45,394 bases of DNA from Craspedostauros australis (Eukaryota): positions 1 to 45,394 of the forward strand of contig JALAGF010002121.1 in NCBI GenBank assembly GCA_030167865.1, read 5' to 3'. The notes under the pieces were generated by a model that worked only from the letters and a program-made list of their open reading frames with translations, was not told the DNA's origin and did not search any database. Of this stretch, positions 990 to 22,713 are shown piece by piece. Numbering within the stretch: position 1 is the first letter of the stretch; each line of letters opens with the position of its first letter. Both the position numbers and the translations under genes were made by a program.

Positions 990-3900
990 TCAAGCATGGA
1001 ATTCATCACTCTCGCTGCTTTTTTCGCTCTTTCCGATGTTGCCGGTCTGACCAGATTCATCTTGGCCGCTCTTCGTTGAACAAACGGCCTCCGACAGCTT
1101 GTCAGCCAGATACGTCGGCTCATTCGGACCCACGCAATCTGCCATAGTCAAAAAGACGATGAACGAGCCCACCGATGCCTGGATGACTGTCAGGAACAGA
1201 ATCAAGGCGAACTTTTGGAAGAAGATGACGATGGTGAAGAGCATGATGGTGGCAGAAGAGATGGTGGTCACCGCCGCCGCCAAGATGGATGGCCCCATGT
1301 GAATCAGAGCGTACTTGGTCCTGATCGAACGATTCGTGTCTCCTGGCAGCAGCGCGTAGGCATGCGTGAAGTGAACCACGAAATCGACGGAAACTCCGAT
1401 GAGGATGGCGAAGCAGATGGATTCGAGGAATCCCAACGTCCACCCAAGGCCGACCAAGCTCGCCGTCACGGAAGTCAGGACGTATGCGATTGCCACGATG
1501 CAGAAGAATGTCAAGACTAGCGATCTGGACGAGAGCAGGATGACGATGGCGGCGGCTGACAGCGCAATAGCTGCCGAACCGTACGCCGTGGAAAGCATGG
1601 AGGTGTTGGTGTCGTACCACCAAAAGTCAGCAGACGAGAAAAACGCTCCATTGACGGTGCTCGGGGCGCCGGCGTTCTGCTTGCTGAACCAGTTATCGAC
1701 GGTGTTCCATTCGCCTTCCAGGACGTCGAATGGATCGTCGAAACTGGCACGGCTGGTGAAGGGAATAGTCACGACCTCCACCTTGCTGCCCTTGGCGAGG
1801 ATGTTCATTTCGTTTGTCGCCTGGGACCAAGCGATGATGCAGGCATCGAAGTTGTTCTCGTCAACAGGCATGGCCGTCGCGCCACCACAGTTGTCGGTGT
1901 AGATTGCTTCTGGATTATCTGACGATGATTGCTCCGTCAGCCACGTATCGAATGCGACGAAAGGACACACGAAAGACGAGTCTGGAAACTTCGCGAATTC
2001 CTGCTCGAAGAAGGTGCCGCAAAAGTCTTTCAGGTAGTTCTGGGCCTCCTCTGGTGCGGCGTCAAACGAGTTGTCCAAAACCAGCTGTGACCAAGACGTT
2101 GGATCGTCTGTTGTTGTTGTTGTTGTTGTTAGAAATCAGCAGGCATTTTACCGGGCAAGGAGTTGAAATGGAGGGAAATTGTGAGAACGCGCGTTTCATG
2201 TCGGCAGAGTATCAATGCTATTGCTATCGTACTGGATGTGCAGCCACCCCACAATCGCATTGCCAACTTAGGTAGCCAAACAGAATAGAGTAGAGCAGCG
2301 CCTTCTCTCAACAGTATTCGTAGAATCCTCACCATGATCACCAGTATCGGCCGGCGTCGTTCCCCACACGACCCACGCCAAACTGCCGCCGCTGCGTGCC
2401 AGCGCATCATCGAGCAGATTCTGTCGCCACAGGTAATTGCGTTCAAATTGGTGCTTGTCGCTGATGAGACGCACGTCGGCGGAGGTTGGGAGATCCAGGG
2501 TGCTGGCGATGTAGGCGGACACGGCCAGGCCGGCCATGCAGACCACCAGCAAGGGCCAGCGGATCAGATGGAGAATGTTGAAGTAGGAAGTGAGGATGCG
2601 TCGGATCAGACTGGGCCGTTCTTCTTCGCCATCGCTGTCAAGTCCGGACGGCTCCGCAACAGCGGCCTCGGCCTCGTCGTCGTCGTCTCCGCCTTTCCCG
2701 GCGCAGCACGCGATGCAACAGTTGGCTTGGTTGGCCATGACGCGACGATCGTAAATGCAAAGGGCCGGGAAGACGAGGAGGATGTTCATGAGGTAGTCGA
2801 ACATGATGAGCAGCCCGCAGAAGATGGCGAACATCTTGATGGGTGCCACGGGGCAGATGGCCGTTCCGAAGAAGGCGATTGCCGTGGTGATAGTCGTGAG
2901 GAACATGGCCTCGGCCGCGTTTGGGAATGCGATGGCGGCAATATCTTCCGTGGGGGCATCGGGGAACTCCAGTCTCGCGTTCTTCCATTTGTCGACCGCG
3001 ACGAAGATGTCGTCGGCTCCGAGCGCAAAGACGACGAAGACACCGATGAAGTTGAGGAAGGGGAAGAAGTTGAGGCCGATGGGGAAGACGTAGACGAAGT
3101 AGGCCAGCGGGAAGGAAAGGATGATCTGCAGCAAACCCAGACCCGTGAGGAAGGGGCTTCGCGTGTGGACCAAGATGGCGACGGTCGTGATGAAGGCTGA
3201 ACCGACGGCCAGGGTCATGTCGCGACCGACCGCCTCATCGCTGTACTTGTTGTTAAAGTGCTCCTCCTGCGTATCGTAGGCACCTTCGACTGTGCCGCCG
3301 CCCTGATCGAACTTGTCCACAATGCCGTAGAGCGTATCAAGGGCAGATTCCGGAGTCGCGAAGACCGACGATGTGTACGAGACGCGGCGGGTTTTGTGAA
3401 AGTCTCCGTTGACCAGGAGGGGACCAAACTCCAACGGGCACGATGATGGATAGACGTAGTCATCATCCGATGTGTAGGTATCGAGGACGTCGGCAACGCA
3501 GGTCGCCCACGTGTCTTCGGTCGTTTTCTGAAAATCTGCATCCCCCCATCCTTGGCTGAGTTCCTCGCACGTCATGTCCATGCCATTCTTGAAATGCATG
3601 CGGACGTAGAGCACCAGTCCATATGGTTGGTAGCACTCATTCTCGGTGGTGGCACACGGATTGATTTTGCAAAGGCCCCTGTCATGCAGAATTTTCTGCG
3701 TGTTGGTCTCCGCGTCGCAAATATCGCGAATGACGTCTGGACTGAGCGCGGTGTTGGAGCTGCTCTTGACCTTCCACACGGGTGATAGCCGGTACGGTTT
3801 GGCGGCGCGGCCCCAATACCAGTCCTGCTCCTCCTGGCACAATTCTTTGGTGCCCTCGCCGACGATGGGGCGGGACGTGTTGGTGTAGTCCACCTGCAGA

Positions 3901-4916
3901 TGACGATTCGGCAGAACTCGAGGAGATGATGATGATGATGACGATCGCGTCGCATCCGAAGCTGGCACGAGAAGACCGTTGCTGAATCTGCTGCGATCAT
4001 TGCTGGCAGACGAGGACGCAAAGTCTGACGTTGGCTTCCACAGCCGATTCCACGAGATTGGAGACGACTGCTCTTCACCGTCGACATTCGCGTCAGAGGC
4101 AGAAGCGGAATCATCAGCAACAGCCGAGAACAGCATGGACATGACATCGATCTCTCGATGATGCTGATCAAAGTCCTCCCGCATTTGCAGGACGTGCGAC
4201 TCGGCCTCCAACCGGCGTTCCGAGATGGAGTCGTCAGTCTCCCAACCCTCCTGCACGTTGCGCTGCAAGTCTTCCCAGAACGCGGCATCCGTCGTGAAGA
4301 GATCCGCTCGGAACGTGTCGACCATGCGCGATTGCGTCTCGCGATCGGAGATGACGGTGCCGCGGCTTTGCCATCCTGCGTTGTCGGCAGCGATGGAGAA
4401 ATCCCCCACCGTGAAGGCGATGACGGAGAGGCCGATGCTGATGATGAGCGAACCGATCAGGTGGATGCAGGGGCTGCGCGCCATGCGACGCGACGAGCTG
4501 TCAGTGATGGCATGGAACCAACCAGTGTGAGCCGCCGCTGTGCTGTTGCTCGTGGTGTTTGCGTCGGTGTGGTCTCCGGGCGACGACGATGTTGTCATTG
4601 CCGCTGACTTGCTCTTGTCGACGCCGTTTCCATTCCCTGTGCTGGCGTCGTCGCTGCTGCTGTCAATGAGCTTCGATGTGGATTCCGTGGAGTTGCCGTT
4701 GTTGCCATCAGCACCGTCCTTCTTCTCGTATGCGTTGTCATCCATGTTGTCATCCATGTTGTCATCCATGTTGTCATCCATGTTGTCATCCATGTTGTCA
4801 TCCATGTTGTCATCCATGTTGTCATCCATACGACTATTGGTGTTGGCATCCATCGCATCCTCCGCAGTTGCTGCGGTCGCTGACTTATCCGTCATCTCTT
4901 CGTGGTTGTCAGTCAT
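990..4916 (-). CDS. Dispatched/Patched-family (RND, sterol-sensing domain) multi-pass membrane protein, 2 exons
   Basis: Exon 1 is 4916-2333 and exon 2 is 2107-990. Intron 2332-2108 (GTGAG...CTAAC...CAG) joins in frame as ..DTGDH-D-DPTSWSQLVLDNSFD. Shows SSD motifs LGADDIFV, MFLTTITTAIAF and IGVSVDFVVHFTHAY, and two TM clusters. Confidence 0.9.
4734..4829 (-). repeat. Coding 12-bp tandem repeat, 8 copies, encoding (MDDN)8
   Basis: GTTGTCATCCAT repeated on the plus strand, in the N-terminal tail of the Dispatched-like protein. Confidence 0.95.
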
Positions 4917-5402
4917 GGTCACAACCTGTTGCTGGGGCTGTCACTGCTGCCGCTCTGTGGTCGCAATGAGGAGAATCGGAAGGCGATGGATGGATGTGCT
5001 GTGAGTCAACTGCGAGGAACGATAGTCGTATTAGTAGTCGTACTGTAGCTTGTATTGGTACCATGCGCTGTGCTCTCGGTCGTATCACTTTCTCTATCCT
5101 TTGCTCCAGATCGTATTTTGTGCTCAACCCAACGTCCTCCTCTGCTTCTTCGCTTCTGATCGTTGTCTTCCCACGAACGAGAGCGAGCGCAAAGAGTAGG
5201 TCGTCCTCGTGCTCACGGTTGGGAACAAGTCAGGCAAGAACCGTTTCCACCTGTTTCCGTCTCTTGGATGTGGGAGGGATGGTGATAGCGTCAACCAACA
5301 GGGGAGTCGCAGTGGAGATGGCCGATGCAGCGTGAGCGTGAGTTTGAGTGTGGGTGTGAGCGTGGGTGTTTGGTGGTGCGGAAAGAGACAGGTGATCGCG
5401 TC

Positions 5403-6146: not shown

Positions 6147-7607
6147 ATGCCTCCCTGCCGTTTCGCTGTCTTGGCTCGTATCCAAACACTTGCCCACTCA
6201 TACGAGCTATCATACTATATTCGCAAGAAGTACGAATGCAACATGAAGGTCGAGGTCAAGGTCAAGGACGGCACAGGAGAGGGAGCTCGCCCTCACAAGA
6301 AGTCACGTTCGTTGAACGGCGATGATGGAGACGGGGATGATCATGAGGATGCTCACCATCATGTCGGTGATGGTGGTGGTGATGCGAAGCAACAGACCGA
6401 ACAGGGGAAGGAACAGGTGCAACCCCAGTCATTGCCATCACCACCGCCATCATCATCATTGCCATCATCATCACCCAACATCCCGACATTCGATGTCGCT
6501 TCGCCAGATTTCAACGATGACGTCTTTCGAGAAGCGTACGAGCATTTCCAGGTCGTACATCTCACGGGCGCGCTGCAAGGACGTGACAGAGCGGACAAGG
6601 ATCTGGCACAAGATCAGCGTGTGTTATCGGCCGATGACGTCGGGCACATATACGCACAGCTCAACGAGGAGGATCAGCAATCATGGTGCATCGAGACGCA
6701 GATCAAAGACAAGACCGGCAAGCACAAGGAATCGCGGACACCCAGCACGCCCACGACGCCCCGTGACTTCCTCAGCAACGACGTCAACCACGACAAGACA
6801 GTGGCGTACTGCAGCTTCCTGATCCAGAAAGATGCCGATGCGTACGCTTCCCTCCTGCCGAGGCTGCCCGTGTCAACCTTGCCGTTCGCGCCGCAACTGA
6901 CGTACGAACCGTGCATATGGATGTTCTTTGGCAGAAATTGTTCCATCCATCAACAAGAGCCCATGCAAGGGCGTCCCGAACACACGGACAGCGTCTCACA
7001 TGATGGAACGTGGCACTACCAGCTGGCCGGCACGAAGCGATGGCTCATCCGTCCCACGCCCAACTTGTTGCAACGTATGACCGACAGCTGTCAGACCATG
7101 GCGCAGCCATCTGCCTTGCGCGCCAGCGTCGAACTGTGGAGTCAAAGCAAGGACTGCCGCACCGTCATCGAGTGCGAACACGGTGACATCATCGTCATCA
7201 ACACCAAACTGTGGTACCATCAGACGGTCATTCCGCATCCCACCGCACGCTCCATTTCTTACGCGCGTGACTTCTGGCTGGGCACTCCGCAAATGGGAAC
7301 GAGCATGTCCAACGTGGATGGCATGTACGCAACAGAAGATGTCGTGGCCGGCACGGTCATCTTCACGGAGCACGACATGCCGGATGGGGAACTGCATCGT
7401 TCCAAGTCTGCCGCCAACTGCCAAGTCGTGGAACTGGACGATGGCACCAGCGCCGTTGTGTCATCGCGTGACATCGTTGCGGGGGATTTCTTCTGCATAC
7501 CGGAATCGTCATCGGAAGAAGATGACGACGATGGTGATGGAGACGGGGAAGAATTTGGGACGGACGACGATGGAGGCGGACAAGATGATGATGATGAAGA
7601 AGAATAG
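6147..7607 (+). CDS. JmjC/cupin-type Fe(II)/2-oxoglutarate oxygenase with a short C-terminal SET-like module and acidic tail (start may be ATG 6243)
   Basis: GRPEHTDS (HxD), WHYQLAGTKRWLI and GDIIVINTKLWYHQT (distal His) are JmjC hallmarks. The C-terminal GMYATEDVVAGT...LHRS...ANC...VVSSRDIVAGD resembles SET motifs. Confidence 0.82.
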   Translation: MPPCRFAVLARIQTLAHSYELSYYIRKKYECNMKVEVKVKDGTGEGARPHKKSRSLNGDDGDGDDHEDAHHHVGDGGGDAKQQTEQGKEQVQPQSLPSPPPSSSLPSSSPNIPTFDVASPDFNDDVFREAYEHFQVVHLTGALQGRDRADKDLAQDQRVLSADDVGHIYAQLNEEDQQSWCIETQIKDKTGKHKESRTPSTPTTPRDFLSNDVNHDKTVAYCSFLIQKDADAYASLLPRLPVSTLPFAPQLTYEPCIWMFFGRNCSIHQQEPMQGRPEHTDSVSHDGTWHYQLAGTKRWLIRPTPNLLQRMTDSCQTMAQPSALRASVELWSQSKDCRTVIECEHGDIIVINTKLWYHQTVIPHPTARSISYARDFWLGTPQMGTSMSNVDGMYATEDVVAGTVIFTEHDMPDGELHRSKSAANCQVVELDDGTSAVVSSRDIVAGDFFCIPESSSEEDDDDGDGDGEEFGTDDDGGGQDDDDEEE

Positions 7608-8061
7608 ACCACCCAGCAACCACCTTCACGAGACAGAAATCGAAGCAGGACCACCCGGATGTGCGAGTCGTGCAACACAACGTGGGAGCCTCGACGAAAG
7701 CAAAGGTTTTAGTGAACTTGCAGCACAGCGTCGTTTATCACTACTATGCTCCTTTCTCTAGCTTCTATTTCTGTATCTATGGGTTTTTTGTATGTAGCTG
7801 TTTTGGGGAGAGTAATGAAGTTTGGAATTGCATCACAAATCGACGGCCCTGTTGCGAAAGATGTGTGGAGGTTATGGTGTCGTCTTGGTTGTGCGAGATG
7901 CTCGAAGTCGGATAGACTGCGACATGGTTCATTCTCCAGGATGTTTGCGGCTGCAGTCACACCACGAGAGCCATGCTGCGAGATACGCCCCATACGTTCA
8001 CCTGTGAATACTCCTACGATCGACTCGTGAGCAGGAACACAGACGTTTTAGCGCGATGCCA

Positions 8062-11000
8062 TTAATCGTCACCGAGGGTGGCCAGTGGCTTGAATCCAGG
8101 AACTGTCTTGTCGCCACACTGGAAGACCGTGTTCGATGCGCAAGTGGTCTTGCAGTCATCGCCCTTGGACATGATACCGCCAGCATTGCAGACGAGTTTG
8201 CACTTGGACACTTCGGCATGGGCGCTGGATTCCAGGACGATTGCGCAACCGTCATTCGATTCGATCTTGCATCGAGTCATCTTGATGTTTGAATCGTTGC
8301 AGCGGATTGCATCTTGCTTGCAACCTTTTACGGTGCACTGTGATGGTAATAAGCAGCGGAGGCGGGAAGCAGGAAACAGAAGGTTGTTGAATTGAGCAAG
8401 GCGTATCCGCGATGAAGTGGTGCATCCATATCAGCAAAGCGAGAACTTCGCACACAGAATGAAGTGGTCCAGCTGCTGCGACTCTGACTGTGCTCGTCAC
8501 AAGCAACAACGCAATAGTCCATACCTCAGCGATTACACATGCCCGTACTTTTGCCATACATACCTGGGAGAGTTCAAGGGAAGAGCCGCCGTTCATGACG
8601 ATTCCGCCATTCGATCCATTGCGAAGCACGACGTTGTGCCATCTGCCCTTGCGACCGGCCCCGGCTGCGCTCATCACGGCCCCGTCGCAACCGTTGTTGT
8701 CCAAGACACTGTGCACCATATCGATGCTACCATTCTCGCCAATTGATATAACTTCATGTGACGATGCCGGCTTGGATGACAGCTTGGGTCGTCGGAACGT
8801 GATGCCCTCAATCCAACCGCCCTTGGCATTCCAAGTCAGTGACCCACCGAGCTCGATCACCACATTGGCCGGATTGTTCTCATCACCGATCAACCGCAGC
8901 GGGAAATTGACGACGAGGCCAGGCTCCTGTACCCAATAGTGCCCATCGCTGAGCTCGATTGTATCTCCAGCGGAAGACACGGCAAATGCTTCCTGGATCG
9001 TCTTGTGATGATTAAATTCCCTCCTCTCCTTCCCGGCCAGTGCGCTCATCTCCACTGGATACACGTGGCGGACGAATTTGATATCCAGCGCTGCTCGCCT
9101 CCAATGGTGGCATACAGTGGAGCAGGATGTTCGTTCGGGAAATGGCAGGAGGTACGACATTATGCAGTACAGTGGCTTTGGTGGTATCGCCGCCCATCCT
9201 TCTGCCATGGCCACCTCGCTGGCCTCCAAATCAACGATGACCAGTGGCTTGTCCCAGGTCGCTTCGCCTGTGTCGGCGTTGTACCAGAATGGCTTCTTGG
9301 TATTCCCATCTTGCTTCTGCGACCAGTGCTCTCCGGTGAGCCTCATCCGCTTCTTGTTGGCTCGCAGCCGCGAACGCTCACGAAGGTACAGGTTGCGCTG
9401 ACGGAACAGCTGGTCAGGTGTGGGGCGTGTCGCCAGAAGGTCTCCGTAGTCAATCGCCAGACGTTCTTCGGCCGCCTTTTTGCGCTCAATTTCGTCGATG
9501 TCAATCTGATCTTCCGTTTCCATCTCCTCCAGGCGCCGGTTGTACTCTTGGATGGAATGGATCGAGTAGAATGGATCAATCTGTTCTCGGAATTTCAATC
9601 CATACTGCTCCATCCGCGACAGGGACGAATTGATGGCGTCCGTATCGATCCCCACCTTGTTCTGCCACTCGGCAAATTCTTGCTCCATGACGTTGCCATT
9701 TTCGTGCGCGCTGTCCTCGGTTTGGCTCGCGCTGCCGTTGCCTGCATCCTTTCCGGGCTTTCCAGAACCAGCCGATTGTTTTTGGCCGCCTTTCCCATTT
9801 TCTTCCTCAGTTGCCTGCTTCCCGTTGCTGTTCTTTCCGTTCTTGCCATCCGTAGGTATTGCTGTGGCTGCGCCAGTATCGCTTCTGATGTCGTCATCTT
9901 CGTTTTCAGTCTCTGCCTTGATCTCGGCATTCTCATCGAACTCTTTCAGCTCTTCCGCAGCTTCTTTCCGTGCTCCATGCAACGCCTTCACGTCGTCGTC
10001 ATCTTCAAGGGCCGCCATGGCCTTTTCCATCTGCTCCTTGCTCATATCGGTCGCGTCCATGCCCGGAACATCGGCGCCATCCTCACCATTCGCATCCACC
10101 TCCATTGCATCTGCTTGCTGGTTCTGAACCCCAAGGATGGCTTGCAGGTTGCTTTTGCTGTACACATCCGAATTGCTGTTGGTCGCATTTTCCTTTGCAG
10201 CCTCCTCCTCCTCCTCCTTCTGCTGCTGCTGCGGCTGCCCCTGTTGTTGCGCATCCTTCGTCGTTGCATCGAACTTGCCCTCATCCATCACAACAATGTC
10301 CAAGTTCTTCTTCTGCTTGGCTTTCAGAAGGATATTCTCTTCGATGGAATTCTCTGTGATGAGGCGGTAGATGTGAACGTCTCTCGTTTGGCCGATCCGA
10401 TGGGCTCTGTCCTGTGCCTGCGCATCCATGGCAGGGTTCCAGTCGCTGTCGTAGAAGATCACAGTGTCGGCGCCCGTGAGATTGATCCCCATTCCACCGC
10501 TCCGCGTGCTCAGGATGAAGCAGAAAACCTTCGTGTCATTGTTGAATCGATCCATGTAGCGCTGGCGCCGATCCACACCGGTCGCTCCATCCAGTCGCAA
10601 GTACGTGTGGCCGTGCAGATTCAGAAATGCCTCCAAAATGTCCAACATCTTGCTCATCTGCGTGAAGATCAATGCACGGTGCCCACCTCGTTTCAGCGTG
10701 CGCAGCAGTTCGGAAAGCGTTTGAAGTTTGCCGGCATCGTACTGCACCAGCTTCTTGTCGGGAAAGAATGACGAGAGCTTTGCATGCACTCGTCGGTACG
10801 GACGAAAGTGCTCCTCGAGCGGTTCCAACAGCATGCTCTCCAAGTCTTTGACCGGAATGCTCGTGCCTGCATTTCGCAGATTCTGCGACTTGAGCTGGAC
10901 CCTGCCAACGCCGACCGGAGGCACGCACATCACGAACTTGTCGATCATGCCGGTTAGATCAGATGCTCGTTCCGTGACCGATTGGCGCATCTGCAGCAAA

Positions 11001-14000
11001 GGTGCTGGCGTTAGCACGATGCTCGTTCCGTGACATTCCACTCCCTCTGAGCGCTTCAACGGTTGCTCCAAGAATGACGACACCTTGCGGCGGAGAATTT
11101 CGGGATACGGGAATGCTGGAGCGTTGCATCGCCAGAAATTGGTGGCATTGTGAAACTCCAACTTCTCTCGTCGGTGTCGGTCAGTTGCATCGTTGAGGCT
11201 TTGCAAGAGCGAATGGAATTCTTTGGGAGTGTCCTCATCGATGGTGTACTTGGTCGTCTGGTCCCGGCCGCCTTCGGCGCGATCATCGTCATCATTCTCC
11301 GATGTTGTGATCCGAAGCTTGCGCAATTGGGCAGCTACCGCTGCATCGTGGGCATGGCAATACTCCAGCGACATCAAACCGCAGCTGCCGCTCCACAAAG
11401 GATGCAAGAGGAAGTCGCTGATCTTCTCCAACGGACTTGTGTCAAGGGCCGCGTCTACCGCACATCCAGGAACACGATACTCAATTGCAGGGATTACGAA
11501 CGGGGTGACAACGGACCGTGGTTCGAACAGATCAGGGTGGTTGCATACCTTCCGAAGCTGCATGAGGACGTTCATCATCCCCATGAAGTTGCCGCCTTTC
11601 GTCAATGCCTGCCGCGTCGAGGATCGCGCCATGAATTCTTCGTACAGAGTCATTTGACGCCGAGACAGCTGGCACTTCACGACATGTTCGTATTTGCCCG
11701 GCATTTGCTTCTCGACGTCCTTCTTCAGTCGTCGAAGTACGAAGGGACGGATGATGCCGTGCAGGCGATTGATGACGTCGTCGTTGCGGCTGGCATTACC
11801 TTCGATGATGTTGTTCATGGGGTTTGAGAACCAGTACGAGAACTCCTTTCTCGATCGGAAGATGTACGGCATCAGAAAGTGAAGCAACGACCACAGCTCC
11901 ATGAGGTTGTTCTGTGACGAATGTCAAAAAGAAATAAAGTTAAATAAAGGAATGTGGGATGCTCGGTCGTCAGCAGAGTTGTTGGATTGGGAGTTTGTAG
12001 ACGTGGATATGGATCAACACAACAACAACAATAGCACAAGACAAGACATGACAAGCAAAAGTCTGCATTCGCACATGCATCCTCCAACTTACCTGGAGGG
12101 GCGTTCCAGTCAACAGCAGGCGCCGCTGTGTATTGAAATTGATGAGAGTCTGCCATCGCTGACTTTGAAAGTTCTTAATATTCTGCGCCTCATCCAAGAC
12201 CAGGTAGTACCACCGTTTGCGTTTAAATGCGAAAGCATCTTGGACCGCTAACTGGTACGACGTGATCACGACGTGGTACCAGTTGGTCTTCGTCCATCCA
12301 GTGCGAAGTTCCTTTCGTCTCTTGGCGGAACCGTGGTAACACAGAACCTTCAGGCTTGGGCAAAATCTCTTCAATTCGGTTTCCCAATTGATGATGACGG
12401 ATGTCGGGACGACGACCAGGTGCGGGCCCCAGATTCCTTTGTACGATGCCAAATACGAAAACAGAGTGATCGTTTGCAATGTCTTGCCCAAACCCATTTC
12501 TGTGCCATCGTTTGAAGAAATTGAATTGTGAGGGCGAATGTAGGAGCACAGCACAGCACAGCACAGCATAGTATAATAGTATGGGATGGAATGGTGGGCG
12601 TGAGAACGAGGACAAATGTTGCAATGGTTGCGCCTTCATCAGAAACCTCTCCTTGCTCAGCCGCTTACTCTACGTCACTCTGAGATATGCCTGCAGGAGC
12701 GAACACGTATACATTCCTTGACACAGCTGCTCGTACGTACCATCTGCAAGAATCCCATTGAGACGTCTTGATTGGAGCGAGACCAACCAATTCAACCCGA
12801 CTTGCTGGTACTTTCGTAGCTTGACCCAACCGGCCAACAGGTACGGCCGGCTGGCAAGCGTTTGTCGCGCTCTCTCCGCTGAGGCCTCAAGCGCGCTCAA
12901 CGCTTTCAAACCATCATCTGATTGCTCGCTTTGGCTGTGATCTTCCTTCGGGTTGGCCGTGCTGGATGCATTCCCAACGGTGTCGCAATCCATCTGATCC
13001 TGGCGTTGGGGGGGCTTGTTGCCATCGGTCTTTTCATACTTGATCTCGGTCTTTGTTTCACCATTTCGATTCTGCCCTTCCATCTTTCCTTTCTTGATTT
13101 CACCAGAGTTTTCAAGATCAACTTCGGTGTGTTTCCGCTTGCGCCGAGATCTTCGCCTTGTGCCGATCGGCGATTCAGCCATCGCATCCGGATCTGGATC
13201 GGTGTCATGAGGGCCATTATCTTCGTGTGATGTACGCTGCTGTTCTATTGCAGGTTCGTCACTGTCGCCGTTCATTCGATTGTAAAGTGACAGAAGTTGT
13301 TCGATTGGTACTTCGCTCTCCGCCTTCAACATCTTCATCTCATCCTCGTGGCTCATTTCACGGCCAAGGCGCTCCTCTGCGGCGATGGTAGTCTCATCGT
13401 CCACCAAATCCTTGGCGTCTATTTCGAACTCATCGTTGTCGGTGCTTATGGCTTGGCTGCTTGCATCACCTTCCGTCACGATGGAATCGTCATTGTCGTC
13501 TTCAGGAGGTGCATCGGTGCTTTCCACACCATCGTCGTCGTCGTCGTCGTTGGCGTTGGAGGCTTCTTGCGATGAATACAACCCCTTGTACATTGCTCGC
13601 AGCTGTTCGATCGGAATCTCGTTCTCCTGTTGGAGCATCGCCATTTCCTCCTCATGGGACATCTCACGTCCAAGACGCTCCTCGATCTCCATCGTGGTTT
13701 CATCGTCCATGGCCTGCGCATCCGGCTCGAATTCTTCGTTGCCGTCATCGGATGGTGCTCCGTCATTCGTGTAATTGCTTGGGCCTTGGTCATTGCCGTT
13801 GCCCTTTTCCTTGTCGCTATTATCTTCCTTTGCCTCTTCTTTCTCATTGTCGTCGCTGTTGTCATCACTATCATCGTCAGCAGGACCATCGCCATTTGTC
13901 ATCCCTGCGTACATCGCGCGAAGCTGCTCAATGGGTATTTCGTTCTCTTGCTTGAGCAGATTCATTTCCGCTTCGTATGACATGTCCCTCCCAAGCTTTT

Positions 14001-15250
14001 CTTCTGCTGCGATGGTAGTCTCATCATCTACCTGCTCCACATCCATCGGAACGTATTCTTCTGTGTCGTTGTTGCTGGCCGCTTGTTGATCGAATTGCAA
14101 ATCGCTAAGAGATGCCGCAACGGACGCTTCATTTCTGTTCGTGCTGCTCTCAGCCCCATCGTTTTGTGTTGAACCAGAATCGACGTTGCGTTTACTCCGT
14201 CGCAAGGACCTTGTCTCTCGTAGTGCGGCGTCATTATTGTCATTCTCACACATTGCCGTTGCTGTTGTCGTTGTCGTTGCCATTGCCGTTGTCGTTGCCG
14301 TTGTCGTTGCCGTTGTCGTTGCCGTTGTCGTTGCCGTTGCCGATGGTTGCTGTGTCTCTGCATCATGTGCAAGCTGAGCATACATTTTGCGAAGGTCTTC
14401 GACGGACATTTCGTTATCCTTCCGTAGCAAATCCAGCTCCTGCGTCGGAGTGTATTGCTGCGGTAGATTCTCTTCCTGCTCCATTGTGGTTTCGTCATCG
14501 GCAACCATGCCAACATCTTCGAATTCGTCATCGTCGTCTCCGTTTGCCTTGCCACCGCTACCCCTGTCGAATGCGGCAACGAAATCCTCAACGTCGCTTG
14601 CGTCGCCGTCATCGTCCGCGACGTTGCCATCATCATGATCGTTGTGGCCAGCGATACTTCCGGAGCCCTTGGTCCTCCGCGAGCTTCGAGCACTTCGAGG
14701 TGGTTGGGATTCGGTGTTTACGTCGTTAGAAACGTCGCCCGTGTGTCTCGCAAATGAAACTCGTTTGTTTTTGGCTGCGGCGGTCGCATGCTGACCCCAA
14801 GCACCGGTGGTTCCGCCGTCATCATCGCCGTTGCTATGGACGTTACTATCGCCGTTGGCAGATGGTTGCTGACCTTCTGCAATCAGCCGATGGACCACGT
14901 CATTGATATCCATCTCGGCTTCCTCGTGCAATTTCTGCAATTCCTGCGCATCTGCCACGAAGGCACCTGACATGTGTCGTTGCTGCAATTCATCGTGCTC
15001 CGCTTGACGGATCGTCGTCTCATCGTCATCGGAATCGCTGCTCTCAGGATCGAAGGACGCATCTGATCCGGAATCGGACGCCGTGGATTCGCCGTACAGC
15101 TCCGTGTCGTCCTTGCCCAAACGAAGTCGCGAATAATCAGTGACGCGAGTTTTGGATCTCCGCTTGCGTTCGGCGGCCAGAGCTTCCTCGATGGTCATTT
15201 TGTATCGTCGGTGCTTTCGTTTCTTCTTGCCACCGCGCTTCTGTTGCTGT

Positions 15251-15281
<31 letters not shown>

Positions 15282-16194
15282 TATGTTCGTGTTTAGCGCC
15301 ATCATCGTCTCCCATGCGGCCATTGGCCTCCGGCGGTGAAGAATTCGGCTCGAATGCTGCAGCTGCAGCTGCCGTGGTCGTAGATGATTGACCGTGGGCA
15401 TGATCATTCCCAGCCGCATGGGAATATGCGTCGTTTTCATCAGTATCATCGACATCATCGACATCAGCATCATCACTTTCGTCGTCGTCGTCGTCGTCAT
15501 CGTCATCCTGATCGACAAGCCACTTGCTGTATCGCTCTGTCTGCTTGACCAACGACACCAGCTGCTTGTTCATGGCCTTCTTGCGCTCTTCATCTGCATG
15601 CAACTTTTGCTTGTACGACACGATGCGTTCAATCTTCGTCCACCAGCCTTTCAACTCGCGTGATATCTTGCCTGCCAACCGCCGGCGCTTGAGCTCGGCT
15701 TCGGCCAATTCGCGGATGCGGCGCGATTCCTTCGTCTTGTGGAATTGACGCACGGCCGCGGCCATCTTCTTGGCGGATGATACCTGTCGCTTGCGCTCCC
15801 CCGCGAAATCGGCGCCGAGCCACATCATCTCCTTCATGAGGAAATCCCAGTGCGTGTCGCGTTTGGGTTCGAATTGGATCAAGGGACTGCGTCGCTCGTC
15901 CTTGCTGTCGACATCCGATGCCGTGGCGCTGGCCGTCGTCGCATCAGTATCGGAGACGGCGCTCTGCTTTCGTTTGGTCGACCGACGCTTCGTGTTGCGA
16001 GAGTTGGCGGTCGCCGCAGCCTTTTTCGCGGCGGCCGTCTGTTTGAGTGGATGTGGCGGAGCCGCCACTTGCGCGAGCCTCGCGGACGCACGCTCCTTGC
16101 GCTCCTCAAGCTCCTCCAGGGTCGCCAGGCCGATCTCCAGAGACATCCGGGTGGTGTCCACGGTGGACGACGACAGGGATGCTGACACCGGCAT
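8062..16194 (-). CDS. SWR1: SWR1/SRCAP/PIE1-family SNF2 chromatin-remodelling ATPase, 4 exons, with C-terminal WW, F-box and beta-helix domains
   Basis: Exons are 16194-12741, 12499-12093, 11911-8564 and 8337-8062, with three GT-AG introns. Junctions rebuild GILAD-EMGLGKT, LLTGTPLQ-NNLMELWSLL and LELSQ-CTVKGC. Also present: HSA domain (THWDFLMKEMMWL), LDEAQNIKN, QLRKVCNHPDLF and DSDWNPAMDAQAQDRAHRIGQ, with a split ATPase. Confidence 0.95.
14256..14342 (-). repeat. Coding 12-bp repeat giving a Thr/Ala tract in SWR1
   Basis: GCCGTTGTCGTT-type units encode ATATTTATTTATTTATTTAMATTTTTATA. Confidence 0.85.
15241..15279 (-). repeat. CAG/CAA polyglutamine tract in SWR1
   Basis: (CTG/TTG)n on the plus strand; Q run in the translation. 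Confidence 0.9.
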
Positions 16195-17134: not shown

Positions 17135-20100
17135 TCATGCCTTGAACCAGCTCCTCCATTCTGGAATGTCGTCCTCGCTGTTTTCTTCGAAGGCTCGGGG
17201 TTCCGCGCCATCTCCGGAGGGGAGGTCGTTCACGTTGACCTTGGACAGGAAGAGGCATCGTGTCACCTTCATGCCATGCAGCCTGTCGATGATGGAGGAT
17301 GGACTGGTGTCCGGATCCTCGTCGACCAGATTGGGCTGCATCTGCGGATTGTTCTTGGCAATGCGCTCATGCACCGCAAACTGCGCCAATCGCAGCGCGA
17401 AGGAAACGACGGCGGAGTTCAGCAGCACTCCCACCACCAGGTACCAGCAATTGGAGGCCACCGATGCCTGCACCGAGAAGCACACCGGGTCTTCTGTGGA
17501 GTCGGCAGGCGCAAATTCGGCCAGGATACTGTTCAAGATGTCGCATTTGTCACCGATCATGAAGTCGGCGAATGTGGAGATTTGCAGCAACGCCGCGATG
17601 ATGGACAGCGCGAACACTTCCACCGCGCTCCACGCGTTGGCAATCTCGGCCATCACCAGCACCTTCTTCTGCTGTCGGATTTGCAGCGGGTAGAACATCA
17701 GCGTCGTCAGCAGCGTCAGGCACGCGATGGGCGTGATGACCGCGTAGAAAAAGAAGGCAGCCTGGATCGCCAGGATGCCGATGCTGTGTGGATTCGCAGC
17801 GCTGTCCGACAGGAAGGTGCCGATGGACAGCAGCGAGTAGCTCGAGCTGCTGCGGTCACCCAGGGCTGCACCTCCCACACCGCCGAACTCGAATATGAAA
17901 CTCTTCTTCGTGAAGCCGATGCACATGAGGCCGGCTGCACCACCCAGCGTTGCGAGGAGCACGAACTTCAGGAACAGCGATATCCTGAACTTGGTGCCAT
18001 GCGGATTGACGCCGAAGGACTGACCCAGCACGCTCACCCTCCTTGCTGACACCAAACTGAGACCTTCGTCTTGGCACTTGCGATGGTAGTACAGCATCAG
18101 ATGACCCAGCAACAACGACACCGATGTCGCCAGCAGGAAGCCGTAAAATCCGCGGTGTGGTGACACGTACAGGTCCAGCACGACGGTGTCGGAAAGCTCC
18201 AGATGGTACCGGAATGCCACCATGAAGAGCACAAGGACGTACGTGTCCACCAGCGAGAACTTGCCCAGTGCATCCAACATGAGGAGCACGCGTTCGCGTC
18301 GAGGCAGATTGACGGTGGGCACAATCCACGCCCGCAGCATGAGCAAGAGTTTTCCGTACGGCCACATCCCACTGAACCCAACGACGAGGAAGAGCAGCGG
18401 GTAGATGCCCGCGGCGTAGAGCTGCCGGATGGTGTGACCCAAACTGAAACCAAAGACCTCGGGCAGGCTGATGTTGTTGCCGTTGCCGAGCGCGATGTTG
18501 ACATCGACGGAGGCGCCCACGCTGAGGTTGCCAGTGAGGAGCATGATAATCGTGCACACGATGAGGATTGGGACCAGATGCCGCACAATCGCTGGCACCT
18601 GCTCCGCCTTGAACAACGAGTGCGGTTTCTGTTGATCAATGATGTGTTCCTCCATCAACCTTTCGTTGATGCCTTCGTTGATGCCCGCGACGATGTCGTC
18701 GTCTAATGCTGATGGTGATAGACAGCCCTCCAAAACCTGATCTGTCGTGGCTGCTTCGTTGGGGAGCAATGGGCGGTGCAGCTCGTCCACGCCCTGTCTG
18801 TTCAATCTGCTCATTCGTTTCGCTCTCATCACGGAGAAGAAGACGAGCTGTCCCAAAACGAAGAAGAAGCCCACAAAACCGAGGAATGGCAGATGGTCTG
18901 GTTGGTCTTCGGTAGAGGGAACGGGCGCATTCGGATTGACGTCACCGTGGCAGATGTTGGGTGACTTCACCACCAGCTTCTCAGCCGCCTTGTTCACAAC
19001 ATCGAACGTGGTGTGCCACACCCATTGCATGACGGATGACAGCATCTCCGTGACGACAGGATACTCCCTCGTGCCCAGTTTGTACTGCACGGGTTGGTGC
19101 TGTCCCTGGACGATCAAGATGGAGGTGTTGGATTCGAATTGGCCGATGGACAACGATGCTGGCGCAACCAATCGGAGCTCGGACAGTGGCACGGCTGCAC
19201 ATTGTGCAAATTGGAAGATGTTCGCGAGCGATCTGGTCGCCAGCTGGTTGAGGTCGTAATCAATCCGGCTCCCTAAGTTCATCACCAGGTCGCCGACGAG
19301 CAGGGTGGAGTTGAGCGAGATGTCCAGATCGAATGCCGGCATGTTGACATCCATGCCGAACACAACCTCCGGTGACCATTTTGTATCTTGCGCGTAGATG
19401 GCGGACGAATGCAGCAAGTTGATTTCCTTCGTTAATTTCGTTGGCATCAGCACTTGCAGCTGTTCCAACGTGTCGAAGTTGTTCAACGACAGCTCGCGGA
19501 TGTTGACCAGAGATCCGAAGATGCGGGATGCCAGCTTGCCCACTGCCGATGTGGAAGGATCTGATGGTTCCAGAGACTGTGGCGGTGCGTGGGTTGCCGC
19601 TGCGCCAGAATGAACACCAGCAATATTATCAGCCATATTGTTTGCAATAGTGTCAGCATTAGCATCACCAGTGTCAACTTCATCAGAAAGATGTCGGTGA
19701 TGAATGAGAACACGCGAAAGACATCCGAGATAGTCGTTGAACGATTGCATGGTCGCTCTGTCCCTGAGGAAACCGTTGATTTCGTCCAGCAGTTTCACTT
19801 GCGTAAAGTTGACAAACTGCGGATGGTCGAGGATTTCGGATGCGGGACATTCTGCTACCTTTCCGGAATGAGGATCCAGGCTCCAGGTCGAAAGAATATG
19901 CTGGAGGTAGGTATTCAGATTCCCGATGCCGTGATCGTGCGTGTACTTTCCAATGATGGTGTTGATGAGTTCGGAGTACTCGACCGAGGCCACCTGAGCG
20001 ACAGCGTTGAAGAGGTTGTCCAGGTCAAGTTCCAACGACGACTGCGCCGTCTCGTTGCCATTGCGTGGAACCATGCGGAAGGTATCGAGGACGAAACCCA

Positions 20101-22060
20101 CCATCGCGTCTGGATGGACGACGACACTTTTGACCAGAGAGACCAAGCAACCGAGGTTCTTGAGTCTGTTGTTGCCGTTGGCAACGTTCCTCACCGCCTC
20201 CACTATCTGGAGCACGGACACGTCGTTCCAGTCGGTGGTCTCCGCCAGAGTTTCGAATGCCACGTGGATGTCGCGCAGAGAAAGGCTCATTTCAAAGTCT
20301 TCCTCGAGCGGCTCGCCATAGAACATGGTCCCGGGGCGTGTGTAAAGCTCCAACTTGATTTTGGTGGTGACGGTCCAGTTCGACGATTGGATGTCAGTCA
20401 TCAAGGTGCCATTCTGCAGGTTGGGCTGCATCAACTGCACATTGTCCATGTTGTCGATCCCGCTCCAATGGACGTGCGCGATGCTGATGGTCATGTTGGC
20501 ACCGTACGCCAGCTGATACGTGAACTTCTGCAGTTCCGGTGGCAATCTAATCGCTATCCTTCCGCCGGTGAAGTGATTGATGGTGCCGGAAACGCCGCGG
20601 AAGAAGTAGCCGCACTCCTCTTCGTCGCACGGCTCTGGTATCCAGTCACTGAGAAAGCCCTTGTTGAGGTGAGCAAGAACGAATCCGTTGATCCACTCCA
20701 TGATGTTCCGCACGACTGGTGACATGAAGCCGTTGTAGGGTGAGTTGCGCAGTGATTGCAGCTGATGTGTCGATGATGATTGTGCGAGTGATCGGCGTGA
20801 ATGTCTTCTCATGTTGAATGCTGGCATATCCAACGCATCGACGTCAGCTTCTACTTCTGCTGTTGCTACGGCCGTTGCCATTGCCGAGCCGTGCGGTGAC
20901 AGCATCCGATGAGATTCAGACGATGATGTCGCTGCAGTTGCCGAAGTTGAAGGTGATTCAATGACACCATCCGTACCTTCGCCTGCGGACGGCCTCAATT
21001 GCGAATAATCGGTGACTTCACCTCCATTTTGATGACCAACCTGACTACCATGATCAAAATGTCCTTCGACATCATCGTCTCTCGGCAAGTGGGCCTCAAA
21101 CCACGGCAAGGCCTGCGACAGCAAGTCGTTGCCCTTCTCTTGGACCGTATCGTTGATGAGCGGGCAGAGCTGCGTACCGAGCGCAGACGTGATCCATCTG
21201 GAAATCGGACCCACGAACCAGTCGATAACGTGCGCAGAGATGGATCCTGTGAACTTGATGCTGTGCTTCGGCGCGCTGAGCTTGGTGCCGCATTTCGTGC
21301 ATTCGGTGTGCATTGGGATTTTGACGGTGCCATAATGCGGTATTGCCTGACCCTGCACAATGATGTTCAACTCTACGGCATGGTCGTCGCCACGGATCGA
21401 GGCCTGGACGTTTCCGGAGAGGCCACCGGATGATTTGTACTTGCCGCTGCAGGTGGCGGAGAGTCCGGAGAGGACGATGCCCAGGAGCGGGTCCTTCACA
21501 CTGTCGCTCGATGGCGTGAAGGATGATGTGATGTTGGTCAGCACGAACTGAGAGCATGTCATGTCGTGGATCCTTATCATCATGTAGTCCTTGTGGAAGA
21601 TCTGCTGCGGGATGGCAACCTTCAGGCGCCACAGCCAGCATGCCAACCGGTTGCTTCCCTTTGAGACATCCGTGCAGTTTGGTTCGAGATGGTCACGGAT
21701 ATCTGTATCGTCGCCATCGTTGAATGCATCGTAATTGATGACATCAATGGATGGCATGCCTTGAAAGGGGTCGAACGAATTGGTGGGTGGAGAGTCCAAA
21801 TGAGTCACCTGAGTCATCTCAGCGTGCTTCAAATCTTCGTTCTGGCGATCAACATTGTCGTCATCAACAATACTGCCATCAATGGTGGTATCAACGGCAC
21901 TGTCGAGGGTACTATCGCGAGTGCTATCGTCTCTTGCTTGCTCCTGTGGCACAATCAAGCCAACATCCCGCGAGGGATGCAATACTTCGCTCCTGGCAAA
22001 TTGCACCTTGAGGTGGAGGCACAGCACCAGCAATGCGGGGATGCTCACCATGACTCTCAT
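17135..22060 (-). CDS. Large membrane protein: signal peptide, about 1000-aa luminal region, TM helix, then two PqiA (paraquat-inducible protein A/LetA)-like domains
   Basis: Single 1641-aa ORF with a hydrophobic N-terminus. PqiA-type motifs FSGMWPYGKLL...LGKFSLVDTYVL and VITPI...NAWSAVEVFALSI echo the WSMxDVF signature. Confidence 0.82.
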   Translation of the reverse strand: MRVMVSIPALLVLCLHLKVQFARSEVLHPSRDVGLIVPQEQARDDSTRDSTLDSAVDTTIDGSIVDDDNVDRQNEDLKHAEMTQVTHLDSPPTNSFDPFQGMPSIDVINYDAFNDGDDTDIRDHLEPNCTDVSKGSNRLACWLWRLKVAIPQQIFHKDYMMIRIHDMTCSQFVLTNITSSFTPSSDSVKDPLLGIVLSGLSATCSGKYKSSGGLSGNVQASIRGDDHAVELNIIVQGQAIPHYGTVKIPMHTECTKCGTKLSAPKHSIKFTGSISAHVIDWFVGPISRWITSALGTQLCPLINDTVQEKGNDLLSQALPWFEAHLPRDDDVEGHFDHGSQVGHQNGGEVTDYSQLRPSAGEGTDGVIESPSTSATAATSSSESHRMLSPHGSAMATAVATAEVEADVDALDMPAFNMRRHSRRSLAQSSSTHQLQSLRNSPYNGFMSPVVRNIMEWINGFVLAHLNKGFLSDWIPEPCDEEECGYFFRGVSGTINHFTGGRIAIRLPPELQKFTYQLAYGANMTISIAHVHWSGIDNMDNVQLMQPNLQNGTLMTDIQSSNWTVTTKIKLELYTRPGTMFYGEPLEEDFEMSLSLRDIHVAFETLAETTDWNDVSVLQIVEAVRNVANGNNRLKNLGCLVSLVKSVVVHPDAMVGFVLDTFRMVPRNGNETAQSSLELDLDNLFNAVAQVASVEYSELINTIIGKYTHDHGIGNLNTYLQHILSTWSLDPHSGKVAECPASEILDHPQFVNFTQVKLLDEINGFLRDRATMQSFNDYLGCLSRVLIHHRHLSDEVDTGDANADTIANNMADNIAGVHSGAAATHAPPQSLEPSDPSTSAVGKLASRIFGSLVNIRELSLNNFDTLEQLQVLMPTKLTKEINLLHSSAIYAQDTKWSPEVVFGMDVNMPAFDLDISLNSTLLVGDLVMNLGSRIDYDLNQLATRSLANIFQFAQCAAVPLSELRLVAPASLSIGQFESNTSILIVQGQHQPVQYKLGTREYPVVTEMLSSVMQWVWHTTFDVVNKAAEKLVVKSPNICHGDVNPNAPVPSTEDQPDHLPFLGFVGFFFVLGQLVFFSVMRAKRMSRLNRQGVDELHRPLLPNEAATTDQVLEGCLSPSALDDDIVAGINEGINERLMEEHIIDQQKPHSLFKAEQVPAIVRHLVPILIVCTIIMLLTGNLSVGASVDVNIALGNGNNISLPEVFGFSLGHTIRQLYAAGIYPLLFLVVGFSGMWPYGKLLLMLRAWIVPTVNLPRRERVLLMLDALGKFSLVDTYVLVLFMVAFRYHLELSDTVVLDLYVSPHRGFYGFLLATSVSLLLGHLMLYYHRKCQDEGLSLVSARRVSVLGQSFGVNPHGTKFRISLFLKFVLLATLGGAAGLMCIGFTKKSFIFEFGGVGGAALGDRSSSSYSLLSIGTFLSDSAANPHSIGILAIQAAFFFYAVITPIACLTLLTTLMFYPLQIRQQKKVLVMAEIANAWSAVEVFALSIIAALLQISTFADFMIGDKCDILNSILAEFAPADSTEDPVCFSVQASVASNCWYLVVGVLLNSAVVSFALRLAQFAVHERIAKNNPQMQPNLVDEDPDTSPSSIIDRLHGMKVTRCLFLSKVNVNDLPSGDGAEPRAFEENSEDDIPEWRSWFKA

Positions 22061-22713
22061 GGTTGGTGGCCTTCGCTTCCTCGCTTGTTTCTGCCTGCGT
22101 CTCTTGGCAGCCCAGCTCTTCTGCCTCCCTTCCGCGAATGAATGAACGAATAAATGAATGTTGTGGAGGAATGTGGGTGAGTGGAGTATTGCAGAATAGT
22201 CGTTTGTGCGACTTCTGGACCAACGATGGCAGATTTGGTTTTGACAGCTGCAACGTTGCTGATTGTGGTGTCAACGATGAGGGGAGAGGCTGCGCGGATC
22301 ATTCGCCTCTTCGTTTGTGCACAAAAGGACGAAGGAAGCGCCAGGAAATGAAAATGCCAAGTGTCACAAGAGAACATTTCACTCCGAGCTGTCGGTCGTG
22401 CGTGGTTGGAGTGCGTCTTCTTTTCTGTTCCGCAAGGAACCGTTGGAAGATTGACATCGCTCCACTTTTGAATCAGTGGACTGGAAACAACAAGCGTTAG
22501 ACCATAGACTGCCAGACGTACGACTATGCAATCGAATAATACACTCCAAATCGAAGACATTACGAGTGGAGAGTAACATGTGAAATGCTATACGTATGTA
22601 CATAGATATACATTACGATGTCGATTATGTGTACTCGCACGCGTGCCTAGTCGAATCTGCGCCTGCGCACACGCAAGATACTATTCTATTACACTCAACA
22701 GGACACCACGACA

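Follow-up and report, generated by a model that had tools for sequence, protein, structure and literature searches.

An ancient SWR1-type remodeller ATPase fusion with a WW, F-box and beta-helix tail in stramenopiles, a candidate SCF receptor module

The window, a stretch of 45,394 nucleotides from Craspedostauros australis that was analysed at its full length, encodes a SWR1-type remodeller ATPase whose reading frame continues into a WW domain, an F-box and a right-handed beta-helix. The fusion is real and ancient, and it places an F-box receptor module on the SWR1 motor itself. The best explanation of this architecture, to which we assign a probability of about 0.5, is that the SWR1 ATPase would act as its own SCF receptor and would ubiquitylate proteins where it deposits H2A.Z.

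The best PDB matches of the ATPase were SRCAP (459 bits) and Swr1 (387 bits), compared with 285 bits for INO80. The protein shares with yeast Swr1 and human SRCAP an HSA domain, acidic repeats and a SNF2 ATPase split by a long insertion, which here separates the two Pfam lobes by about 265 aa (Table 1). The acidic repeats are presumably H2A.Z-H2B binding sites, given their likeness to yeast Swr1-Z. A loose pattern for this SRCAP/Swr1-Z-like repeat recovered 0-6 copies across 15 long orthologues, which suggests that species differ in how many probable H2A.Z-H2B sites they have. Over lobe 2, the next SNF2 gene in the genome shared 54% identity with the gene, compared with about 87% for orthologues. 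A gene for YL1/Swc2 was present in the genome. Judged by these sequence comparisons, the gene is a SWR1 orthologue, a member of the SWR1/SRCAP/PIE1 family, and the only SWR1-type ATPase found in the genome. The encoded protein may be expected to perform ATP-dependent H2A.Z exchange.

Table 1. Features of the SWR1-type gene in the window (positions of the window; - denotes the minus strand).
Feature	Position	Strand	Observation
Exon 1	12741..16194	-	HSA domain and acidic region; terminates within first ATPase motif
HSA domain	15673..15867	-	PF07529, 52.5 bits (cut-off 23); best PDB match SRCAP
Five acidic repeats, about 45 aa each	13260..15050	-	Between HSA and ATPase; resemble the repeats of SRCAP 283-480
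Exon 2	12093..12499	-	ATPase lobe 1, Walker A and Walker B intact; SNF2-rel_dom 133 bits (Pfam)
Exon 3	8564..11911	-	1,116 stop-free codons: end of lobe 1, SWR1-type insertion, lobe 2, acidic linker, WW, F-box, start of beta-helix
Helicase_C (ATPase lobe 2)	10391..10729	-	PF00271, 89.7 bits
Conserved helical segment ahead of WW	9332..9676	-	Helices in models; last long helix continues into WW
WW domain	9245..9331	-	Nearest type Prp40/PRPF40A
F-box, predicted SKP1-binding surface	9059..9196	-	Pfam, complex model, fold match
Cap and first coils of right-handed beta-helix	8564..9058	-	Model of homologue P0016, fold searches
Intron 3	8338..8563	-	226 nt, GT-AG, phase 0; skipped by spliced contig of run X1
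Exon 4	8062..8337	-	Final beta-helix coils, 91 aa and stop; PF13229, 33.6 bits; X1 contigs
Probable 3' untranslated region	7741..8061	-	X1 contig 1 spans 7741-8168, no mismatch

The gene comprises four exons coding for 2,494 aa in a spliced frame without internal stop. Each of its three introns has GT-AG borders; the start of exon 1 was inferred as the first ATG of the frame. An earlier note on this DNA had placed WW, F-box-like and beta-helix motifs in the exon of the helicase C-terminal lobe, and the motifs that it quoted were recovered in exon 3. The clean intron across which it had the beta-helix continue was also confirmed: one contig of run X1 (presumed RNA) omits exactly the 226 bases of intron 3, with no mismatch, and a second X1 contig leads from 8168 through the stop codon to 7741. 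Since the X1 contigs span the 3' end of the gene only, their gap between helicase and WW is uninformative. For this stretch, transcriptome-derived proteins of other species were available. P0002, P0003, P0013 and P0110 hold helicase, WW and F-box in a single ORF, and in P0306 from Cantina, also transcriptome-derived, the fusion was recognized by its WW and beta-helix matches. These proteins support a single transcript that would reach from helicase to tail. Two adjacent genes might have been merged by an error of assembly or reading, as the helicase-to-WW stretch lies outside the RNA contig coverage of this strain, but the single stop-free exon and the occurrence of the same fusion across stramenopiles and in transcriptome-derived proteins reduce the probability of such an error to a negligible level.

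The neighbouring genes were annotated as well. A convergent gene on the plus strand (6243-7607) gave no Pfam match, contains His motifs that by eye we take to be cupin/JmjC-like, and has its stop 134 bases from the 3' contig end of the SWR1 gene. Two further genes lie on the minus strand, one for a sterol-sensing membrane protein that resembles Patched/Dispatched and has a 12-nt tandem repeat close to its start (990-4940), and one ORF of 1,710 aa (17138-22270) with a C-terminal PqiA match (39.3 bits) as its sole match; the PqiA family is known mostly from bacteria. Between 22717 and 42896, the neighbours are ordinary (TLDc, DUF6940, methyltransferase, CRAL-TRIO, PDZ plus ferredoxin-like, and cytochrome c heme lyase).

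The tail was characterized by profile matches, alignment and structure models. Its helical segment ahead of the WW domain was matched in 90 of 90 relatives, with a median identity of 57%. The WW domain scored 25.2 bits in Pfam (E 1.7e-5; piece 8564-9400), slightly below the cut-off of 26.9, and exceeded the cut-off in 3 of 22 orthologues scanned. In the 101 rows spanning WW to F-box (100 of 150 representatives and the window sequence), the first Trp was present in 100, the Asn and the Pro in all 101, and an aromatic residue at the second position in 95 (Trp in 60). A model of the helix-WW-F-box segment of the window (pLDDT 92) aligned with the Prp40 WW domain over 44 residues (Z 4.6, rmsd 1.6 A). 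The domain has retained its aromatic cluster and shows the three-stranded WW fold. WW domains of the Prp40/FBP11 type have proline-rich peptides as their ligand class, and by likeness to PRPF40A/Prp40 the tail WW may bind such peptides, too.

The F-box-like motif gave a Pfam match of 32.5 bits (cut-off 24.3, E 7.5e-8; piece 8564-9400), in line with the earlier note. Among the 22 orthologues scanned, eight scored above the Pfam cut-off for the F-box, nine scored below it and five, including Aureococcus and Cantina, were unmatched. In the window model, the F-box has a three-helix fold that matched the Skp2 F-box over 41 residues (rmsd 1.6 A) with a Z of 5.7, which is low taken alone and carries weight because the top rows were F-box chains. 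Foldseek gave no match for the WW/F-box model at E up to 0.001. The Beta_helix match in exon 4 exceeded its Pfam cut-off of 25.9 bits, and the AlphaFold2 model of the homologue P0016 (mean pLDDT 86.6) consists of a long helix, the WW domain, a helix, the three-helix F-box and, over about 220 residues, a beta-helix. This beta-helix matched pectate-lyase-type beta-helices with a Z of up to 24. Fold searches of the beta-helix also gave polysaccharide lyases and tailspikes at 8-16% identity, which we take to reflect a common fold and probably no common activity. The distance from the proline of the WW domain to that of the F-box is 21 residues in each of the 101 rows, and the F-box core is conserved in 82-100% of these rows (Pro 83, Ile-type 98, Leu-type 94, Arg 96, Cys/Ser 98, Trp/Phe 101). 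Thus, the invariant spacing and the conserved core indicate that the tail is a maintained rigid unit and no relic. The constant spacing would also suit an F-box fold that has lost SKP1 binding and merely connects the WW domain rigidly to the beta-helix, and a Pfam F-box score that is weak or absent in 14 of the 22 orthologues points the same way. However, the hydrophobic F-box positions are conserved, and a complex model that includes the adjoining WW and beta-helix still puts SKP1 on the F-box, so that we regard a mere joint as improbable.

The distribution of the fusion was examined by sequence searches. A search with the tail yielded 90 proteins of 490-2,000 aa, all of which matched WW and F-box; 73 of them also contained helicase-C, and the remaining 17 start in or just past the SWR1 linker. 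Named diatom carriers were Nitzschia, Cylindrotheca, Seminavis, Epithemia and Thalassiosira, several of them from transcriptomes. A profile search covered 1.84 billion representatives, and the best 150 of 1,912 matches were analysed. Helicase-C was present in 67 of these 150, and 58 of the 67 continue unbroken into WW-F-box, 54 of them as far as the beta-helix; the other nine end at most 90 residues from the pre-WW segment. Among the 100 representatives with WW and F-box in the same best 150 of 1,912, nine had no upstream SWR1 match. In all nine, the match starts no more than about 25 residues from the N-terminus, as would fit fragments. Of ten of the more distant representatives among the best 150 of 1,912, five could be named as carriers: Phytophthora citrophthora, Albugo laibachii, Aureococcus anophagefferens, Chrysoparadoxa australica and Cantina marsupialis. 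For picking the rows to name, and for this alone, a midpoint-rooted FastTree of 89 rows was used. Peronospora effusa was added as a further named carrier by a search with 7 matches among 7,998 scored.

Thus, the fusion extends beyond diatoms, and the named carriers span Ochrophyta (diatoms, a pelagophyte and Chrysoparadoxa), Oomycota (three oomycetes) and Bigyra (Cantina). A single fusion before the stramenopile radiation is the simplest reading of this range, and as judged from the matches named from the best 150 of 1,912, it was probably already present in the stramenopile ancestor. The outgroups compared with the tail profile, yeast Swr1 and human SRCAP, matched it over the first 142-150 positions only, i.e., ahead of the WW domain, and the statement of the earlier note that both lack the module was upheld.

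Several related observations were made in the course of these searches. A free-standing donor of the tail was sought in the genome, and the tail matched itself alone (one candidate). A free gene with F-box and beta-helix at G000:C5289 was considered as a relative of the SWR1 tail and rejected, as no kinship between the two could be detected; this gene (L041:1357-3355, minus strand) has an F-box-like match of E 0.0014, below the cut-off, and a Beta_helix match of 39.9 bits. Another locus, G000:C2287 (L040:880-2703, minus strand), encodes a protein with a beta-helix and a WWE domain (100.3 and 41.9 bits). The oomycete and Cantina orthologues P0254, P0322 and P0306 possess long low-complexity tails past the beta-helix, and in the Phytophthora orthologue the beta-helix is split by a long insertion.

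The genome contains four SKP1-like genes, at G000:C4821, C585 and C5615 (L001-L005), and cullins, one of which is CUL1-like by eye. The two SKP1-like genes at C5615 are divergent and stand in tandem. SKP1 homologues without introns (L006 and L007; 52% and 36% identity) were seen on two viral-collection contigs. When the tail (F-box, WW and part of the beta-helix) was modelled by ESMFold2 with one SKP1 of the genome (150 residues, without the last few), the pair scored 0.66 compared with 0.00 for the best of three controls, a score that may reflect memory of solved pairs, F-box and SKP1 being a textbook pair, and that denotes likeness rather than binding. Among microbial pairs, 51 of 78 solved and 2 of 108 mismatched ones attained the score mark; among eukaryotic pairs, 39 of 65 solved and 2 of 126 mismatched ones did so. 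The modelled interface lay on the F-box, the contacts agreed by at least 84% between runs, and the pLDDT of the partner was at least 68. The tail F-box is thus modelled as an SKP1-binding surface.

Two F-box positions are described as touching CUL1, position 2 with a proline and position 4 with an acidic residue; Skp2 and Fbxo4 bind CUL1 less strongly when the proline is lost, and beta-TrCP lacks the acidic residue at position 4 and binds CUL1 nonetheless (PMC3237615, in excerpt). The proline is present in the window and in 83 of the 101 rows. Position 4 is Lys in the window and acidic in only 11 of the 101 rows; of the 14 other F-box matches in the genome, 11 have an acidic residue there as read by eye. 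Since the proline is kept but the acidic residue is lost, a full SCF has roughly even odds, and a role of the SWR1 tail as a true SCF substrate receptor is about as probable as its opposite. The coupling to an SCF ligase that the earlier note proposed has model support as regards SKP1; as regards CUL1, one of the two contacting F-box positions is not conserved.

Cullin-free SKP1 complexes exist, e.g., CBF3 in yeast. Likewise, the F-box here might bind SKP1 and no cullin, in which case SKP1 would be a structural part of the SWR1 complex, the beta-helix and the WW domain would target the complex or hold subunits, and no ligase would form. The modelled SKP1 interface and the loss of the CUL1-contacting acidic position in 90 of the 101 rows are consistent with such a scaffold, as is the precedent of F-box chromatin proteins, KDM2B being described as needing F-box and LRR to bind Polycomb proteins (PMC7000146, in excerpt). 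Retention of the CUL1-binding proline, the binding of CUL1 by beta-TrCP without the acidic residue (PMC3237615) and the CUL1 binding reported for KDM2B itself (PMC7000146) argue against it, and we consider a cullin-free role rather unlikely, albeit worth keeping in view. Alternatively, an SCF may form but chiefly mark the remodeller or its own subunits, the F-box being a timer that clears SWR1 from chromatin. Substrate receptors are described as capable of self-ubiquitylation (PMC3237615), and no external substrate is known; however, a full beta-helix was retained behind the F-box group-wide, which suits substrate binding better than a bare timer, and the probability of this alternative is small.

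The nearest functional precedent is rice TED1, the PIE1 orthologue, as an analogous link between SWR1 and an SCF that would be made by different means. The C-terminal extension of TED1 is reported to help to assemble SCF(D3) and to promote ubiquitylation in the SCF(D3)-D14-D53 system (PMC13556982, main text). There, TED1 is a scaffold for the separate F-box protein D3, whereas here the F-box lies within the ATPase itself, and the domains given for TED1 are limited to HSA, DEXDc, HELICc and coiled coils (PMC13556982). Neither diatoms nor oomycetes nor a WW domain are mentioned in the main text of that paper; the nine algal proteins that it includes are listed in the supplement.

The earlier note had called the module FBXO11-like. 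The layout of an F-box followed by a right-handed beta-helix is indeed shared with the CASH beta-helix receptors FBXO11/FBXO10 (Atlas score 0.89). FBXO11, however, is described as a free-standing receptor that has a UBR box (PMC5606531, in excerpt), and none was found in the tail: at E up to 1, the last exon gave only Beta_helix and NosD, and it ends after 91 aa. Since the UBR box is absent, the SWR1 tail is not FBXO11; furthermore, its beta-helix is shorter, and a WW domain stands ahead of the F-box. In the Atlas, plant SKIP5 (At3g54480) ranked above FBXO11 as the nearest named cluster (0.93, with 154 of 256 features in common), and the Cantina tail scored below 0.9; these scores are leads only. 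SKIP5 is reported to bind ASK1 by two-hybrid and BiFC (PMC11906370, in excerpt). It is a free protein of 274 aa for which no WW domain or ATPase is described.

FBH1/FBXO18 belongs to another helicase family and works on DNA forks. It is a nucleic-acid motor with its own F-box, was solved in the SCF-bound state (9xzj), and its F-box superimposed on that of our model with an rmsd of 1.5 A over 38 residues; it has neither WW domain nor beta-helix and is no nucleosome remodeller. KDM2B/FBXL10 resembles the fusion as a chromatin enzyme with an F-box, and a KDM2B complex is described as influencing H2A.Z loading at DNA damage (PMC6037479, in excerpt), but it is a demethylase with LRRs and a protein separate from the remodeller.

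If the SWR1 ATPase is its own SCF receptor, the gene product would, by orthology, be the catalytic subunit of the stramenopile SWR1 complex and exchange H2A.Z-H2B into nucleosomes. The ancient fusion would have supplied it with a rigid tail of helix, WW, helix, F-box and beta-helix. The F-box would dock SKP1, as modelled, and SKP1 would bring the CUL1-RBX1 ligase. The beta-helix, located where F-box proteins usually have their substrate domain, might select a target near chromatin, and the WW domain might recruit a proline-rich partner, e.g., a transcription or splicing factor. In this manner, the remodeller would ubiquitylate proteins where H2A.Z is deposited. Extended to the whole group, this reading would make the stramenopile SWR1 ATPase an SCF receptor since the last common ancestor, uniting H2A.Z deposition and ubiquitylation on one polypeptide, with a Prp40-type WW domain as a tie to transcription or splicing factors and the fusion as a shared derived mark of the group; we hold this extended version to be tentative, its chances falling just short of even.

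No description of the fusion was found in the literature searched, with most subscription journals outside its scope. In the main text of a chromatin-evolution preprint (10.1101/2021.11.30.470311) the term 'F-box' is absent, and its supplements may list the architecture. The architecture is visible in the automatic annotation of public proteins, e.g., CAB9516050 and KAK1938963, and the fusion may therefore sit unremarked in tables.

SWR1 ranks with the most highly conserved chromatin machines, and what is known of it comes, to our knowledge, almost entirely from yeast, animals and plants. Here, a whole eukaryotic lineage that includes diatoms and oomycetes carries an F-box receptor module on the remodeller motor. 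If SKP1 alone is bound, this would give SKP1 a cullin-free role in chromatin. If the SCF forms, histone variant exchange would be linked directly to ubiquitylation, and other lineages may make the same link by separate proteins, as rice TED1 suggests. In addition, the fusion may be usable as a marker in stramenopile phylogeny.
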